Program-made: the position numbers and the translations under genes
Notes under the pieces: generated by a model
The model's input: only the letters and a program-made list of their open reading frames with translations
What the model was told of the DNA's origin: nothing
The model's database searches: none
In this document: in pieces, positions 8,483 through 51,209 of the stretch
Numbering within the stretch: position 1 is the first letter of the stretch
Layout: each line of letters starts with the position of its first letter
Origin: a virus
Taxonomy: Duplodnaviria > Heunggongvirae > Uroviricota > Caudoviricetes
Virus record (IMG/VR): IMGVR_UViG_2778261161_000002
Reading direction: 5' to 3' (one strand)
Length of the DNA stretch: 64,000 nt

Positions 8483-8500
8483 TCGCCTTGTTAAGTTAAA

Positions 8501-8682: not shown

Positions 8683-9645
8683 GTGAGTATTTTAAATTCA
8701 GTTTCAGTAACTTTCAACACTTCTGAGTATAAAAACAACACTGAATACCACAAAAAAATCAAAGGTCATCAGTTGAGTTTTTTTGCTCGTCATAGCGGTC
8801 TTCTTTCCCCTTCACATAGCGCCATTATTGCCGAGTTCGCCAACCTGGCAGGGTCTACCGATGAATACATGATCCGTCGCTCATATGCTGATATGTCCGA
8901 GATTACAGGACGCAGCATTTCTACTGTGCGCCGGGCATTTGCTGAAGCGACGAAGTGCGGAATGCTTGTTAAGCAACATCAGGTAGCGAATAACAATGCC
9001 CAGGTGTGTAACGTATATCGGTTTACGACACAATTTCTCCACTTCATTCATGTAGCAATGGAGATAGGGGGTAAGCAGGGCATCAAATTTGCCAACGCCA
9101 CAAAGCTGGTTAAGCAATTGATTTCAAAGGTACGTTATTTTTTTGAAACTGGGAACCCCCTGTTCAAATTGAACAAGTCCCCCCATGTTCAAAATGAACA
9201 GCCAATAGAAAATAAGAGTCACTCTATAGCCAAAAGAAGAGAAAGATCATGCGCGGTTCAGCCAAAGGCTTCACCAGCAGATAGTACTCAAGCGGATAAT
9301 GGGGGACTGGATAAAAAAACAGTAATCAGGGAAGAACATACCAACCACTGCCTGGCGGCGGCAAAAGCGAGAGCTGCAAAGCGTCGTTCAGACGAGGGGC
9401 ACGCAAAACGGCAGGCTCTGTATCGTACCGCTGAAAAGCTGGCAAAAAAATTTGCATGGATACGTAGTGCCGCTACCGCAGTGAATAAGCCTAAACAATC
9501 CAGTGCCCTGGATTTCTCAATGGATTATTCTGGCTCCCAGGGGTGTGTAACCATTGGTGAAGCCTTTGACCTGATGAAACAACGTGGCTATCGGTCTGAA
9601 TTTGACCGGGAGGATTGGTCAATCCCTGCGGGATTTAGGGGATGA
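8683..9645 (+). CDS. HTH DNA-binding protein, possible replication initiator (RepL-like position)
   Basis: HTH-like segment MSEITGRSISTVRRAFAEATKCGMLVKQ; operator-like motif upstream; palindromic repeats inside ORF. Confidence 0.35.
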   Translation: MSILNSVSVTFNTSEYKNNTEYHKKIKGHQLSFFARHSGLLSPSHSAIIAEFANLAGSTDEYMIRRSYADMSEITGRSISTVRRAFAEATKCGMLVKQHQVANNNAQVCNVYRFTTQFLHFIHVAMEIGGKQGIKFANATKLVKQLISKVRYFFETGNPLFKLNKSPHVQNEQPIENKSHSIAKRRERSCAVQPKASPADSTQADNGGLDKKTVIREEHTNHCLAAAKARAAKRRSDEGHAKRQALYRTAEKLAKKFAWIRSAATAVNKPKQSSALDFSMDYSGSQGCVTIGEAFDLMKQRGYRSEFDREDWSIPAGFRG

Positions 9646-9699
9646 CCTGTGTGTCTACAAAGCATCCCAATGATCGGAAAATGCTCGCTCGATGATTTG

Positions 9700-9708
9700 T
9701 GTTAGAAA
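9700..9708 (-). promoter_or_regulatory. Operator-like motif (copy 2, reverse orientation)
   Basis: ttgTGTTAGAAAAtt upstream of first immI-like module. Confidence 0.5.
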
Positions 9709-9929
9709 ATTAATTTGCTGTTTCTAAATCGGAATGTATGATCTGCATCATCGACTGAAGTCATCCATTGCTGAAATTTTTAGTTGATCTTCCATGTTTT
9801 CAGGCTTATATTCATGCCGTCGTAGCAAATTCTGCGACCAGGTTTGACAGCCTGAATGTTAGTGCGGACAACCGCAGATTTCCGATATTGCGGTATTTTT
9901 GTGTCCGTAAACCGCGTTACGCCCGAATT

Positions 9930-10030
9930 ATGGTGGGGCGTGATGGGGAGGCTTCGGCCTGCTGGTCTCACTAACGCCAGTCTGTCAACCCTGTCACGTC
10001 CTGCCACCTGTTTGACAGCGGGTAGCAGGT
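9930..10030 (+). ncRNA. Candidate c4-like antisense RNA region of immI module 1
   Basis: Direct repeats GTTTGACAGC at 9842 and 10010 flank a complementary CTGTCAAC at 9982, upstream of icd-like ORF; architecture as in P1 c4. Confidence 0.3.
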
Positions 10031-10058
10031 TGTTAAACCTGTTAGTGAGGCCGTAACT

Positions 10059-10283
10059 ATGGTTAATGCCAATCCTTGCTCACGTCCAGAATTCATCTGG
10101 CGTTTCCACTCCCTGCAAAAACACTGCGATCACTTCGCAATTGCCGCAACCGAAAAAGAAGCCCGTTCTCTGATCCCTGATCAGCATGGTGTTCTTACTG
10201 GTCGTTTCTCTACTTCCCCACAACCAAACACTAATCCCTGGTATCGCAATATTACCAATCCCGGCATTGCGGAGGCACACTGA
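10059..10283 (+). CDS. icd: Icd-like cell-division inhibitor, 74 aa
   Basis: Small ORF with EFIWRFHSLQKHCDHFAIAATEKEARS immediately upstream of and overlapping ant-like gene; paralog at 50053. Confidence 0.55.
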   Translation: MVNANPCSRPEFIWRFHSLQKHCDHFAIAATEKEARSLIPDQHGVLTGRFSTSPQPNTNPWYRNITNPGIAEAH

Positions 10284-10990
10284 TGGATATCTGCATTCTT
10301 GAAAAGCCATCAATGACCAGCATTGAGATCGCGGAGCTGGTGGGAAAACGTCATGACAATGTGAAGCGTACCATTGAAACATTAGCCGAATCCGGCGTTA
10401 TTGTTCGTCCTCAAATTGAGGATGAACCAAAAATAGATGTAATGGGGCGTTCTCGATTAATTCAGGTGTTCCGATTTAGCGACGAGCAAGGCAAACGAGA
10501 CAGTATCATTGTAGTCGCACAGCTTTGTCCTGAGTTTACTGCCCGGCTGGTGGACCGCTGGCGCGAACTGGAAGAACAAGTACGCCAGCCGTTGACCGAA
10601 ATAGAGATGATCGCCGCAATGGCTGCAAATGCAGTTCAGCAGCAAAAGCGGCTTCATGCTGTTGAGTCAAAGGTTAGCCAGGTCGCTGAAACCGTCGAGC
10701 AAATCAAGAAGGGCAATATGCCAGATGGTTACATTGGCTACCGCCAGCTGGCGGCGAAATGCGGCCTGACTGAAGCCAAATGTCGCAACCTTGTCAACGC
10801 TTACCGGATTCCCACCGATACACATGAGTTTTTAACTCCAGAGGGGGTATTGTCGCGTCGTTCCATCGTGGCCTTATCTCCCTTCATGAATGCTTTTAAC
10901 CGGATGATGTCGGAGGCTGAACACCGAGGAAAACGCTGGTATCACCCCAAAATGGGGCAATTCCAGGTGATCGGTTGGGGAGGTGAGTGA
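10283..10990 (+). CDS. ant: Antirepressor-like protein (Ant-like), 235 aa
   Basis: ATGA-coupled to icd-like ORF; shares conserved blocks GKRDSIIVVAQL.PEFTARLVDRWRELE and MP.GYIGYRQLAAKCGLTEAKCRNLVNAYRIPTDTHEFLTP with ORF 50268. Confidence 0.55.
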   Translation: MDICILEKPSMTSIEIAELVGKRHDNVKRTIETLAESGVIVRPQIEDEPKIDVMGRSRLIQVFRFSDEQGKRDSIIVVAQLCPEFTARLVDRWRELEEQVRQPLTEIEMIAAMAANAVQQQKRLHAVESKVSQVAETVEQIKKGNMPDGYIGYRQLAAKCGLTEAKCRNLVNAYRIPTDTHEFLTPEGVLSRRSIVALSPFMNAFNRMMSEAEHRGKRWYHPKMGQFQVIGWGGE

Positions 10991-11187
10991 TGGACATCAT
11001 GCAGGCGGTAAAAAAAATCAGGGAAGGACAGGCTGAAGTGTGCCGCCGTAAAGCATGGAGTGTTGGTGTATGGGCCTGGCCTGATAATTACTCTACTACC
11101 GGATGGTTTTGTATTAATGGACTCCAGATCCGGGAAGTTGATTTATCGACGGCTGATATAGTCGGTAATGATTGGATCGTGACTTGA
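10987..11187 (+). CDS. Small hypothetical protein, 66 aa
   Basis: ORF track; ATGA overlap with ant-like. Confidence 0.3.
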   Translation: MMDIMQAVKKIREGQAEVCRRKAWSVGVWAWPDNYSTTGWFCINGLQIREVDLSTADIVGNDWIVT

Positions 11188-11196
11188 AGCGTGATG

Positions 11197-11220
11197 CCCC
11201 GGCCTGGCCGGGGCTTTTTT
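11197..11220. terminator. Bidirectional terminator CCCCGGCC-tg-GCCGGGG + T6
   Basis: Hairpin and T-run between convergent genes. Confidence 0.75.
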
Positions 11221-11705
11221 CATGCCTCATTAGTTGAGGTTGCTGCGTCTCCGACTGGTAACAGAGCGGTATTGTGTGGTTCGCCAGCAGGCCAGCGATA
11301 GCCAGACACTCTTGATGTTGGGAATGCGCGAATATTAACCGCATCCCCCTGGTTCCCACCCAAGACAAGCAGATCGCCATTGGCGCGGCGTCCGACAACG
11401 AAGCCTACGTGCCCACCGCCTACGCGGGTAAATACAACGATACATCCGTATGCCGGTGTATCTAATTTCTCGCCCCAATCCAGATAGGATTTTGCCGACT
11501 CAAATCTTGTTGAGCGGATGCCTACACGTTCCAGCATTGCACCGACAAATGCTGCGCACCACGGCGTTTCATCGTCTTTAATTCCGCCGCGCTTGATGTC
11601 GCGCCAGAACTGAACGATTTCAGGGTTGTGTTTAGCGCCTTTTATTTCAGTCAGGCCAATGTGCTTACGGGCTTCAATTAGCCAGCGAGGTTCAATGTTT
11701 GCCAT
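11220..11705 (-). CDS. CHAP/NlpC-P60-like peptidase (TIGR02594-type phage protein), 161 aa
   Basis: Motif PWCAAFVGAML and downstream HVGFVVG typical of Cys-His amidase. Confidence 0.55.
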   Translation of the reverse strand: MANIEPRWLIEARKHIGLTEIKGAKHNPEIVQFWRDIKRGGIKDDETPWCAAFVGAMLERVGIRSTRFESAKSYLDWGEKLDTPAYGCIVVFTRVGGGHVGFVVGRRANGDLLVLGGNQGDAVNIRAFPTSRVSGYRWPAGEPHNTALLPVGDAATSTNEA

Positions 11706-23125: not shown

Positions 23126-23202
23126 GATGGTGTAGCTCAGTAGGATAGAGCAGCAGCCTTCTAAGCTGTCGGTCGGTGGTTCGAATCCATCCACCATCGC
23201 CA
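23126..23202 (+). tRNA. tRNA-Arg (anticodon TCT, reads AGA)
   Basis: Manual fold: acceptor GATGGTG/CACCATC, D-arm GCTC..GAGC, anticodon loop CTTCTAA, T-arm GGTGG-TTCGAAT-CCATC, CCA encoded. Confidence 0.8.
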
Positions 23203-23204
23203 AT

Positions 23205-23279
23205 GCCGGTTTAGCTCAGTTGGTAGAGCGCCTGCCTTGTAAGCAGGATGTCAGCGGTTCGAGTCCGTTAACCGGCACC
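23205..23279 (+). tRNA. tRNA-Thr (anticodon TGT)
   Basis: Acceptor GCCGGTT/AACCGGC, anticodon loop CTTGTAA, T-loop TTCGAGT. Confidence 0.8.
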
Positions 23280-24442: not shown

Positions 24443-24518
24443 GGCCCTTTAGCTCAGTGGTTAGAGCAGGCGACTCATAATCGCACGGTCACCGGTTCAA
24501 ATCCGGTAGGGGCCACCA
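24443..24518 (+). tRNA. tRNA-Ile2-like (anticodon CAT, AUA decoder) or tRNA-Met
   Basis: GGCCCTTTAGCTCAGTGGTTAGAGCAGGCGACTCATAATCGC... near-identical to E. coli ileX from memory; T-arm ACCGG-TTCAAAT-CCGGT; CCA. Confidence 0.8.
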
Positions 24519-29337: not shown

Positions 29338-30375
29338 TTACCAGAGCTTCGCGGCGTACTGCGTTTGGGGGAATGTGTATCCGTAACGTTCTTCGATTGC
29401 TTTGCCGTATTTTTTACGAGCTTCATTCAGTTTAATGCCGGTCAGGTCGTCTCCAGAGGCCATCATTACGTCTAACAATTCCAGATCCATTTTATCCAGC
29501 CTTGCCATTGCTTCACGTGATGTACGTATCTTACGTTCAATGATATGGCGAATAGCCGGATCGGCATCCTCCAGCATCTTAGCGGATTTCTGCTTAAGGC
29601 TTTCATTGCGAATATCGATGTTCCTTAAGATGTACGACTTCGCAACGTAGCTTGGCTGGTGTTTTTCCAGGTCACGAACACGATATAAGTTAAAATCGCC
29701 GAGAAGGCTGCAAGGTACCGATTCGACGCCAGAATAAATTGTAATGCTCCGGCGTTCACCAACATTATTGACAACGGGGATCGTTGTCTTCGGTAGTCTT
29801 GCGAAAACCAATGCGCCATGTGCGCCAACTCTAAAGCGAGAAAGGGCATTGCTGCCTTCGATGTTTGTTGTCAGCACAACATCTGTATATGCCTCTTTAC
29901 GCGCCCGGTAGATCTCGCCTTCAGGCTCAGCTTCAAAGAAGCGCTGTTCTTCTTCAAGAGCACCTACGATTTGAGAAAAAACCCTATTTTTCAGGCTTTT
30001 CTTTATGATTTTGTCGTATTTTTTTAGCAATTGTTCACGTGTAAATGTACGTGTTGTTGTAGCGCTTTGCACAACGACATGCGTGCTTTGATTGGTGTCC
30101 TCAATGATGAATGGGATCGGAGAATATACAGACTCAACAATGTTCGACGCTTTGCCGTCGGCATCGCGGCACATGTCAACGAAGGCTTTCCATTCAGCAA
30201 GACATTTTTCAGCTTCTTCTAATATGTTTTGGTCATGCGTTAATGCAACATGGCGGAATTCCTCGCCAGCATAACTGGTATCATGGAAAACAGAGTTTGC
30301 GACCACCAGCTCTTTCCACCGTTCAGCGGTTTGCAGGAACCGTTTGTACTCTTTCTCGATCGACTTCTTACTCAT
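29338..30375 (-). CDS. Putative C1-like immunity repressor, 345 aa
   Basis: Position between pacB and lox/cre as in P1; operator-like motif 20 bp upstream of its start; no family motif verified. Confidence 0.4.
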   Translation of the reverse strand: MSKKSIEKEYKRFLQTAERWKELVVANSVFHDTSYAGEEFRHVALTHDQNILEEAEKCLAEWKAFVDMCRDADGKASNIVESVYSPIPFIIEDTNQSTHVVVQSATTTRTFTREQLLKKYDKIIKKSLKNRVFSQIVGALEEEQRFFEAEPEGEIYRARKEAYTDVVLTTNIEGSNALSRFRVGAHGALVFARLPKTTIPVVNNVGERRSITIYSGVESVPCSLLGDFNLYRVRDLEKHQPSYVAKSYILRNIDIRNESLKQKSAKMLEDADPAIRHIIERKIRTSREAMARLDKMDLELLDVMMASGDDLTGIKLNEARKKYGKAIEERYGYTFPQTQYAAKLW

Positions 30376-49251: not shown

Positions 49252-49879
49252 TTTTAAGTTGAATTGTAAATTTCTCCGATGTACATTCACTACCGATTGG
49301 CACACCGGTCAACTTTTTGAGACAAACTGTTTAGTTTTTCGTATTATTGCCCCCGCCATACCTATGGCGGTGCAATATAGGTGGCTGAAAAGCCCCCGTT
49401 GACTCACGGTGTTCCAGCCTTTATTGCGCCGCCACCAGACCGTGGAACAGTCGATGGCGGCTCCGAAAGCAAGGAGTCACTACACTATGAACAACTACAG
49501 TCTTTTCCCATCACTCGTCGTCCACCACTCACGCGATAATCTGCATTCTTTATTCGCGCTGGGGGAGTCAAAATGACTGTTCGCTACCTCAACTTTCAAA
49601 TCAAGAACATTACTGGCGGTTGCTATGACTGGTTTGTCACTCTCGGAAAAGAAGTGATTACCGGGAAGCTGGATGAAGTGAAAGCTAAAGCAATGGCCTA
49701 CGCCTGCAAGCAAGCCCGGAAGAAATCCGCCAAAGCATAAAATACTGACTGTTGCGCCCTGGCATTATCGTGGGGTATATTTCTACGGCACCTTAGAAAA
49801 ACGGGTGCCGGGATTGGAACCCCGGATAATGCAAAAGGCGACACAGACGCCGAAAGCGTCTTTTCTTGTGTCATGCCAT

Positions 49880-50030
49880 CGCACAGCCATACGTAGCGTT
49901 TAGCTCAGAGATCAATGGTAGTGCTGGCTGGGCTGCCGAAAGGCAGGCCGGTTCCCTTTTGCGCCGGTAGTTCCAACCCAGTCAGTGCTACCGCCATTGA
50001 GATTGGAACCTCACGCGGTAGCTCCTTAAA
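49880..50030 (+). ncRNA. Candidate c4-like antisense RNA region of immI module 2
   Basis: GATTGGAACC at 49812 and 50001 with partially complementary GTTCCAACC at 49970; tRNA-like TAGCTCAG segment. Confidence 0.3.
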
Positions 50031-50052
50031 TTAGCAAAAGGAGGCTGCCAAT

Positions 50053-50268
50053 ATGGCTACTATCCCTACCCCAACTCATTCTGAATTTATCTGGCGTTTC
50101 TATTCCTGCCAAAAACACCTGTATATCTGCGTCATGGCTGCAACCGAAGCAGAAGCTCGTTCATACCTTCCTGAAGAACCCTGCATTTTTGCCGCACGCT
50201 TCACTCTTGATGCGATGGAGATCCTCAATTACTGGAATCTGCCAATGAACTGCGTGGAGGTGCACTGA
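50053..50268 (+). CDS. icd: Icd-like protein, 71 aa (second copy)
   Basis: EFIWRFYSCQKHLYICVMAATEAEARS; paralog of 10059. Confidence 0.55.
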   Translation: MATIPTPTHSEFIWRFYSCQKHLYICVMAATEAEARSYLPEEPCIFAARFTLDAMEILNYWNLPMNCVEVH

Positions 50269-51209
50269 TGAATCTGTCCATCTCTCAAAAAGCGACAATG
50301 ACCAGCATTGAGATCGCGGAACTGGTAGGAAGTCGCCAAGATAGTGTGAAGAGAACTATCGAAACACTGGCTAAAAAGAGTGTGATCCAATTTCCACAAT
50401 CTGTGGAAATTGAAAATAAACAATCAGTTGGCCCTCGTCGATTTTCCAAGGCTTACATCTTTGAAGGCGAACAAGGCAAGCGCGATAGTATCATTGTCGT
50501 CGCACAGCTCTCTCCGGAATTCACCGCCCGGCTGGTGGACCGCTGGCGCGAACTGGAGAATGCCAGGGGACCGTTAAAATCAAAAGCCGAAATCCTGGCT
50601 GAAATGGCGCAAATGCATCTTGAGCATGAACGCCGGATCAACGCCGTAAATGCCCAGGTAGCCGAGGTATCAGCACAAGTATCGATGGTCGCTGAAACAC
50701 TCGAGCAAATAAAGAAAGGCAATATGCCGGAAGGCTACATTGGCTACCGCCAGCTGGCGGCGAAATGCGGCCTGACTGAAGCCAAATGTCGCAACCTGGT
50801 TAACGCTTACCGGATACCCACTGATACGCATGAGTTTTTGACTCCCGACGGTTTGCTTGCGCGACGCTCAATTGTGGCCCTGGCCCCCTTCCGGAAAGCC
50901 TTTAAGCAGGTTATGTCGGAGGCAGAACCACGCAACAAACGCTGGTATCATCCAAAGATGGGGATGTTTCAGGCAATCCACCATCCTGTGCCTGAAAGTC
51001 CAAAGGCAAACCTGTCGTTGCATACCGCCAGAGAGAGGATTAAAACAGGGTATGCAATCGTATGCCGTCGAGCATCTTGGCCTGAAGGTGTATGGGTATG
51101 GCCCGAAGGTGGATCACGAAAGCACTGGCGCACTATCCGGGATGGGAAAATCCATGCGATTGATTTAGCTCCAGAGGATGTTGTTGCTACGGACTGGATT
51201 GTTAGTTAA
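50268..51209 (+). CDS. ant: Antirepressor-like protein (second copy), 313 aa
   Basis: Shares conserved blocks with ORF 10283 including a 56-bp identical DNA stretch. Confidence 0.55.
   Translation: MNLSISQKATMTSIEIAELVGSRQDSVKRTIETLAKKSVIQFPQSVEIENKQSVGPRRFSKAYIFEGEQGKRDSIIVVAQLSPEFTARLVDRWRELENARGPLKSKAEILAEMAQMHLEHERRINAVNAQVAEVSAQVSMVAETLEQIKKGNMPEGYIGYRQLAAKCGLTEAKCRNLVNAYRIPTDTHEFLTPDGLLARRSIVALAPFRKAFKQVMSEAEPRNKRWYHPKMGMFQAIHHPVPESPKANLSLHTARERIKTGYAIVCRRASWPEGVWVWPEGGSRKHWRTIRDGKIHAIDLAPEDVVATDWIVS

Follow-up and report, generated by a model that had tools for sequence, protein, structure and literature searches.

Two copies of a short direct repeat, with a complementary element between them, precede an icd-like gene in this stretch of phage DNA (64,000 nucleotides; hereafter the window). 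Do they belong to an antisense RNA switch and, if so, to which one? The first-pass annotation had compared the arrangement to the c4 scheme of phage P1, in which an antisense RNA pairs with repeated target sites and blocks translation of icd and ant. We find that the locus is a copy of the P1 C4 antisense immunity RNA system, an already described phage switch. The comparison is borne out by matches to Rfam models and by the features of P1 itself, which map onto the repeats and onto additional b sites. The transcription, processing, trans action and biological output that we describe for C4 here are drawn by analogy from work on P1.

The repeat is real and is no chance match. As had been noted, GTTTGACAGC is present in exact copies at 9842-9851 and 10010-10019 (+ strand). 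These are its only two exact occurrences on both strands of the 64-kb window, where 0.22 would be expected, and 1 of 100 shuffles reached two copies. The element described as complementary to the repeat, CTGTCAAC at 9982-9989, is so over its first seven bases: CTGTCAA (9982-9988) pairs with the repeat core TTGACAG at 9844-9850 and 10012-10018, but the eighth base is left unpaired. Similarly, both repeats had been assigned to the icd leader. This is correct for the second (a2), whereas the first (a1) precedes the RNA gene and belongs to the 5' leader of the operon. A second triplet was overlooked in the first pass. It consists of GTTAGTG at 9858-9864 and 10041-10047, together with the complement CACTAAC at 9969-9975. 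Within the window, we counted exactly three copies of the composite motif TTGACAG-N(1-30)-GTTAGTG (+ strand, 9844-9864 and 10012-10047; - strand, 9969-9988), against a chance expectation of 0.01.

Covariance models identify the RNA family. The Rfam C4 model (RF01695) matches 9926-10011 over model positions 1-87 of 87, with 66.3 bits against a gathering score of 45. The model of the a1/b1 target motif, c4-a1b1 (RF03163), matches 9806-9858 with 54.4 bits against 46.7. Thus, in the covariance-model search that had been suggested as a check for c4, both models exceed their gathering scores. We placed the features of the window by projecting the experimentally based annotation of the GenBank P1 record onto it via a four-way alignment (P1, P7, D6 and the window). 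The P1 record annotates promoters P2c4 and P1c4, the operator Oc4, a1, b1, a 77-nt C4 misc_RNA, a2, b2, icd and ant1/ant2. By this annotation and RF01695, the C4 antisense RNA homolog of the window is a 77-nt RNA at 9932..10008 (+), identical to the annotated P1 c4 RNA at 76 of 77 positions. The single change is U to C at 9967, where a G-U pair with G10049 would become G-C. P1 and the window share the acceptor-like stem and the 3' CACC without change.

RNA folding, another check that had been proposed, gave a minimum free energy (MFE) of -42.5 kcal/mol (z -4.5) for C4. The predicted shape is a long closing stem around two hairpins, with the two elements b' and a' left unpaired. In the MFE fold, b' (UCUCACUAAC, 9966-9975; RNA CUCACUAAC) lies in the 9-nt loop region of a hairpin and a' (CUGUCAA, 9982-9988) in a 7-nt unpaired junction. 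The internal helices of C4 are 99.9-100% paired in 52 distinct homologous sequences, though these helices are almost invariant.

Target sites for a' and b' lie on either side of the RNA gene, all on the + strand and all placed by the P1 annotation through the alignment. Upstream, a1 (TTGACAG, 9844-9850) sits in the loop of the second leader hairpin, and b1 (GTTAGTG, 9858-9864) is single-stranded in the predicted leader fold. Downstream, a2 (TTGACAG, 10012-10018) lies in the icd leader, and b2 (GTTAGTGA, about 10041-10050) overlaps the icd Shine-Dalgarno sequence GAGG (10047-10050). The predicted b'-b2 duplex (10 bp, -14.2 kcal/mol) spans this GAGG and so occludes the ribosome binding site; the predicted a'-a2 duplex has 7 bp (-8.4 kcal/mol). 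With the upstream sites, the predicted energies are -10.4 kcal/mol for b'-b1 and -8.4 kcal/mol for a'-a1.

Short direct repeats could also act as DNA operators that bind a protein, such as a repressor recognising GTTTGACAGC, rather than as sites of RNA-RNA pairing. Exact short direct repeats close to a promoter and a gene start would suit such a role. However, DNA operators have no need for a third, inverted copy within a stable RNA hairpin structure, nor for joint change of all three copies of two motifs with complementarity kept. To see how the sites vary, we scanned IMG/VR for the conserved C4 hairpin, which returned 120 loci. Together with the window, P1, P7 and D6, these gave 118 modules and 52 distinct aligned sequences. 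Sites were typed in the 117 canonically spaced modules; one locus with non-canonical spacing (L064) was left out. Coordinated, complementary change of the sites was seen in 117 of 117 modules, over 12 a-by-b combinations. Furthermore, another sequence in the window, a dispersed 14-mer, makes a better operator candidate. We therefore regard the operator reading as extremely improbable and treat the repeats as RNA pairing sites.

The pairing pattern in the homologs is consistent throughout. Across the 52 distinct sequences, the a'-a2 and b'-b2 positions are paired in 100% of 780 cells, with compensatory (both-side) change in 8 of 15 pairs (6 of 8 for b'-b2, and two positions for a'-a2). When partners were slid by one to three columns as a control, pairing dropped to 28-48%. 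The upstream sites behave alike: a1-a' and b1-b' are paired in 100% of 728 cells, with both-side change in 6 of 7 b1-b' pairs and at two compensatory positions in a1-a'. Each of the 117 canonical modules carries exact complements of its own a' and b' both upstream and downstream. Loss of the repeats in homologs had been named as a finding that would speak against a c4-like arrangement; instead, all 117 canonical homologs keep the sites or show them co-varying. We observed two specificity types for a and seven for b, in 12 of the 14 combinations. The combination in the window, TTGACAG with GTTAGTG, is the P1 type, and it occurs 16 times among the typed modules.

Two open reading frames overlap C4 (9856-10056, + strand, 66 aa; 9780-10007, - strand, 75 aa). 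We rejected both as coding, because three-way complementary changes are a signature of RNA pairing. Note that c4 is labelled as a CDS in an old GenBank record (X15639).

The first ORF after b2 is the icd homolog, at 10059..10283 (+). It encodes a putative cell-division inhibitor of 74 aa that matches phrog_1426, is 61% identical to P1 Icd over 61 aa and scores 40.3 bits against NCBIfam NF033153 (cut-off 25) over residues 12-51. These residues match the part of P1 Icd that is reported as its FtsZ-targeting active core, and P1 Icd blocks division via FtsZ (PMC11897509). The icd-like ORF had been described as translationally coupled to the next gene, and the two do overlap: the stop codon (10281-10283) and the ATG at 10283 share one base (TGATG). 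A GGAGG lies 8 nt upstream of the 10283 start. Translational coupling of the two genes is predicted from this arrangement.

The second gene (10283..10990, +) encodes a Rha/Roi-family protein of 235 aa. The protein has an N-terminal Rha domain (Pfam PF09669, Phage_pRha) and matches phrog_63, 'anti-repressor Ant', with an E value of 6e-47. Its RefSeq name is 'Rha family transcriptional regulator', and the labels among its relatives vary between Roi, antirepressor and DNA-binding protein. However, it has no detectable similarity to P1 Ant1/Ant2; BLASTP against P1 Ant1 gave an E value of 0.31. Given that the labels come from families and that similarity to Ant1 was not detected, 'antirepressor-like' is an annotation label here rather than a demonstrated function. 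A small ORF of 66 aa (10987..11187, +) overlaps the end of this gene and matches phrog_7385 (E 2e-49). The same family also matches residues 252-312 of a protein encoded by a second module in the window (50268-51209), where the homolog is fused to the Ant C-terminus. An intrinsic-terminator-like site found by the terminator scan, with 8 G-C pairs followed by TTTTTT (11196..11222, +), marks the putative end of the operon.

Upstream of the module, the promoter scan found a sole + strand promoter-like site, at 9784..9812. This putative sigma-70 promoter consists of TTGATC (-35, 9784-9789), a 17-nt spacer and TATATT (-10, 9807-9812). Both hexamers align with annotated P1 hexamers, and the site occupies the position that P1c4 (formerly P51b) has in P1.

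In our view, a D6-like plasmid prophage very probably carries an immI operon of the P1 type at this locus. A single transcript would start from the promoter at 9784-9812 and comprise the a1/b1 leader, C4, a2/b2, the icd-like ORF, the Rha/Roi gene, the small ORF and the terminator. By analogy with P1, RNase P would cut C4 out of this precursor. The hairpin-loop element b' and the junction element a', both unpaired in C4, would then pair with b2 and a2 on the operon transcript. Since the b'-b2 duplex would cover the icd Shine-Dalgarno sequence, icd would not be translated, and neither would the downstream gene, because its start codon overlaps the icd stop codon. In P1, blocked icd translation reportedly leads to premature Rho-dependent termination before ant, a result credited to Biere, Citron and Schuster in 1992. 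In a lysogen, the division inhibitor and a lysis-promoting regulator would thus be kept silent, and the a and b 7-mers would set which C4 acts on which phage. Work on P1 is consistent with such a scheme. Full repression of ant requires the C4 antisense RNA, and ant expression also involves icd (PMC8198154, citing Citron and Schuster 1990 and Riedel et al. 1993). The C4 precursor of P1 and P7 is described as a substrate of RNase P (Hartmann et al. 1995, as cited in PMC2190699).

Which element carries the operon? Positions 9650-11250 of the window are 93.7% identical to Escherichia phage D6, and E. coli plasmids of ~93 kb are 99.3% identical to its first 25 kb. The window is therefore part of a D6-like plasmid prophage. 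Around the match, the D6 annotation runs from a repL-like gene to a darB-like gene. Between the two lie, in turn, a gene labelled 'inhibition of cell division' that resembles P1 icd, a 'putative anti-repressor' that resembles HK97 Roi, a small ORF and, on the opposite strand, a peptidoglycan hydrolase. The D6 ORFs around the match are also present in the window. The window and the orf19/orf18 region of D6 share the same Icd-like gene, the Rha/Roi 'putative anti-repressor' and orf17, with a repL-like gene upstream (8683-9645 in the window). The two differ in the b site: D6 has ACTTACG at b1, b' and b2, with TTGACAG as its a site. Copies of the locus that are at least 99% identical occur in 20 complete E. 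coli records, and relatives of the locus in 536 of 5426 complete E. coli genomes (~10%). D6-like prophages such as pYU39_89 have been reported to carry homologs of c4, icd and the antirepressor, as well as a second c4/icd region (PMC6799933). Given that c4 and icd homologs were already reported in D6-like prophages, the novelty of the present locus is low.

The likeness to P1 (AF234172) is close in the core of the locus. Both have the order promoter, a1, b1, C4, a2, b2 and icd, with identical a (TTGACAG) and b (GTTAGTG) specificity sites. In both, b2 covers the icd Shine-Dalgarno sequence, and the stop codon of icd and the start of the next gene overlap. Outside the core, the two diverge. The gene after icd in the window encodes a Rha/Roi protein that is unrelated to P1 Ant1/Ant2. 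The window lacks sim genes upstream and kilA-repL downstream, and its repL-like gene lies upstream instead. The 100 bp upstream of the promoter are unrelated to P1, with 64 differences in 100 positions. The window also lacks the C1 operator Op51 and the P51a-type promoter, and a search of the whole window for the P1 C1 operator (ATTGCTCTAATAAATTT) found none at three or fewer mismatches. The C1-like protein of the window (29581-30357, - strand) is only ~21% identical to P1 C1 and falls far below the NCBIfam equivalog cut-off. With a repressor so distant from P1 C1, the downstream logic may differ from that of P1.

A P1-like 17-mer look-alike at 9767-9783 was rejected, because it is unique in the window and hence forms no operator family. 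Repeat searches of both upstream regions gave nothing useful. Separately, a 14-mer, TGTTAGAAAAYTAA, is dispersed in the window, with one copy at 9700-9713, and is a candidate operator.

Comparison of the window with D6 and P1 shows reversed patterns of difference along the locus. Against D6, the window differs at 1 of 165 positions in 9690-9854, at 24 of 196 in 9855-10050 and at 3 of 190 in 10111-10300; over the analysed flanks as a whole, 5 of 415 positions differ. Against P1, the differences number 77 in 9690-9854, 1 in the 196 positions of 9855-10050 and 91 in 10111-10300. Thus, the b1-to-b2 specificity core is P1-type inside a D6-type backbone. Such a mosaic might mean that the module is an inactive relic, recombined in from a P1-like phage and non-functional in its D6-like background; the 196-bp P1-type patch and the absence of a P1-type C1 operator would both fit. 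We think this very unlikely. Both ORFs and all six pairing sites are intact, as are the promoter hexamers, the Shine-Dalgarno sequence, the C4 helices and the terminator, and the sequence is kept at that high identity in the 20 E. coli records. Moreover, D6 is built in the same way, with matched b sites of its own. A functional immI operon remains our preferred reading of the locus. P7 c4 (AF503408) likewise has the same RNA scaffold and operon layout, but with a = TTAGCAG and b = GATTGTG at all three copies. Judging from these sites, P7 should not cross-react with the window module.

The leader that carries a1 and b1 raises the possibility of a further layer of control. From 9819 to 9900 (+ strand), it comprises hairpin 1 (9819..9838), hairpin 2 with a1 in its loop (9839..9854), single-stranded b1, and a terminator-like hairpin, CCGCA...UGCGG, followed by UAUUUUU (9871..9900). 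Hairpin 1, which begins at about the predicted transcript start, is placed by the c4-a1b1 and isrK alignments, and hairpin 2 by RF03163. The hairpin 1 helix is ~99.5% paired in the 52 sequences, with four both-side changes, all in one divergent sequence; the stem of the terminator-like hairpin is 100% paired, and termination there is hypothetical. The Rfam isrK model (RF01394) scores the leader at 43.5 bits, below its gathering score of 50, so that it is not assigned to the family at that threshold. The leaders of D6 and P1 score 46.5 and 35.1 bits. Above-threshold isrK matches directly adjoin C4 on its upstream side in the second module of the window and in an Stx2a phage. We know of no short leader RNA reported for P1.

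IsrK of the Salmonella prophage Gifsy-1 is a 77-nt leader small RNA that ends at a terminator; read-through continues into orf45-anrP, which share an AUGA overlap (PMC4825925). A processed RNA of ~80 nt, STnc1160, is complementary to IsrK, and short IsrK activates translation of orf45-anrP in trans (PMC4825925). P1 c4 is unmentioned in that paper. The Gifsy-1 isrK-orf45(STnc1160)-anrP locus resembles the present one in its two-hairpin leader and terminator, its processed complementary RNA of ~80 nt, its small ORF and its coupled antirepressor-like gene. It differs in that the paper stresses activation by the short leader RNA rather than repression by the processed RNA (PMC4825925). The CI RNA of satellite phage P4 offers a looser parallel. 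According to the description in PMC4825925, it too is an RNA processed from a leader that pairs with repeated sites up- and downstream (seqA/seqC) and shuts down downstream genes. However, by the same description it acts by transcription termination, and it belongs to another RNA family and acts on other genes.

We tentatively consider that the leader at 9819-9900 could be an IsrK-type small RNA that ends at the 9871-9900 hairpin and U-run and serves as a decoy or structure switch. This would be an added layer on C4 repression rather than a strict alternative to it. Such an RNA might conceivably bind a' and b' of C4, or the long transcript, and so relieve repression, much as short IsrK activates orf45-anrP translation in Gifsy-1, although we hold this too to be less than an even prospect. 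The isrK scores of all three leaders, the true isrK matches immediately before C4 in the second module and the Stx2a phage, the strongly paired leader hairpins and terminator stem (99.6-100%), the shared Gifsy-1 layout (PMC4825925) and the predicted pairing of a1 and b1 with C4 (-8.4 and -10.4 kcal/mol) all point in this direction. Against it, the score is under the family threshold, and the 9871-9900 hairpin has just 5-6 pairs and a 12-nt loop and was unreported by the terminator scan. A long-range helix between 9839-9854 and 10026-10041 in the MFE fold of the whole leader also lends no weight: it is 94% paired, shows no double-sided co-variation and is indistinguishable from shuffles, with both a types tolerated via G-U/A-U pairs. 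As a hypothesis, a1/b1 leaders and IsrK may represent one and the same element, and the leader may be able to counteract C4.

The second module of the window (49788-51209) has isrK, C4 and matched sites of its own. Its leader at 49788-49866 is a member of the isrK family (59.4 bits against a gathering score of 50), and Rfam places its C4 at 49911-49998. Its sites are a = TTGGAAC and b = GCAAAAGG. The Icd-like and Rha/Roi proteins of the two modules are 45% and 67% identical. Predicted non-cognate duplexes between modules (-3.5 to -7.5 kcal/mol) are weak compared with cognate ones (-8.4 to -15.0 kcal/mol). On these predicted energies, the two modules should be orthogonal.

As an almost identical copy of a classic and well-studied regulator, the element is already known. 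Its value is mainly one of annotation. RefSeq leaves a functional-looking C4 gene of P1 specificity unannotated, together with the four sites that it targets: records of near-identical plasmids annotate both proteins, without an ncRNA feature at the C4 position. This concerns common plasmid prophages of E. coli and Salmonella. The side observations, namely the IsrK-like leader, the P1-type cassette in a D6 backbone, the a-by-b combinatorics, the candidate operator and the second orthogonal module, are modestly interesting. As a speculation, P1-type immI operons might be three-RNA switches, in which the leader is a diverged IsrK of ~80 nt that titrates C4 or remodels the transcript and the b1-to-b2 stretch is an exchangeable cassette. 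An unrelated P1 prophage and the present D6-like prophage would then perhaps silence each other's module 1, leaving module 2 private, a consequence that we hold just as loosely. If the IsrK reading is true, the long-unexplained a1/b1 sites of P1 would correspond to the activator RNA IsrK of Salmonella, joining the P1 c4 literature to the Salmonella IsrK literature. Should the side observations be borne out, immunity relations among phage-plasmids would be set by a few 'address' sequences of 7 nt, and very short recombination patches would reshuffle these addresses.

A second immI-like module, which is complete, occupies 49788-51209 of the window. Its leader matches the isrK family at 59.4 bits and carries the a1 site TTGGAAC and the b1 site GCAAAAGG. 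Its C4 RNA scores 76.7 bits, it has an a2 site and a b2 site over the Shine-Dalgarno sequence, and an Icd-like ORF (50053-50268) is present together with a gene for a Rha/Roi protein (50268-51209). Pairing within this module is predicted to be orthogonal to that of module 1. The two modules also differ by a gene split or fusion: in module 1 (10283-11187), a 235-aa Rha/Roi protein and a 66-aa ORF (phrog_7385) are encoded by two separate, overlapping genes, whereas their homologs in module 2 (50268-51209) are joined in a single 313-aa protein.

It appears that isrK (RF01394) and c4-a1b1 (RF03163) are two Rfam descriptions of a single element, the leader upstream of C4 RNAs. We compared the leader regions of the window (9819-9900), D6 (L001, 2521-2602), P1 (L002, 2670-2751), and an Stx2a phage (L126, 1500-1687). 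In the window, D6, and P1, isrK matches with sub-threshold scores overlap the a1/b1 leader; in module 2 and the Stx2a phage, full isrK matches directly precede C4 on its 5' side. The 'orf45'/STnc1160 RNA of Salmonella Gifsy-1 is probably a C4 homolog.

The P1 operator is absent from the window. We found 17 copies of the 14-mer TGTTAGAAAAYTAA at no more than two mismatches (1.14 expected; none of 100 shuffles had as many as 17), at 8496, 9700, 14105, 19602, 20645, 21894, 22050, 25957, 30390, 30477, 31800, 44013, 48585, 49238, 53010, 61061, and 61077. One copy precedes the c4 promoter by 70 nt, another is upstream of the repL-like gene, and two are upstream of a distant C1 homolog (29581-30357, minus strand). 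The 14-mer is a candidate operator for a D6-type C1 repressor, taking the place of the P1 operator. Elsewhere in the window, Rfam identifies three tRNA genes (23126-23277 and 24443-24515), as would be expected of a phage genome of the P1/D6 type.

The C4 RNA of module 1 differs from that of P1 solely by a U-to-C change at 9967, immediately 5' of b', which was not found in any other of the 118 modules. With this change, the base would form a C-G pair instead of a U-G wobble with G10049 in the Shine-Dalgarno sequence, making the b'-b2 duplex slightly stronger.

Positions 9855-10050 form a 196-bp P1-type patch in D6-type flanks, with 1 difference from P1 and 24 from D6. Among the 117 modules typed, two a types and seven b types occur in 12 of the 14 possible combinations, despite the interleaved arrangement of the sites (a1, b1, b', a', a2, b2). 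This implies that recombination or conversion has occurred repeatedly in very short patches.
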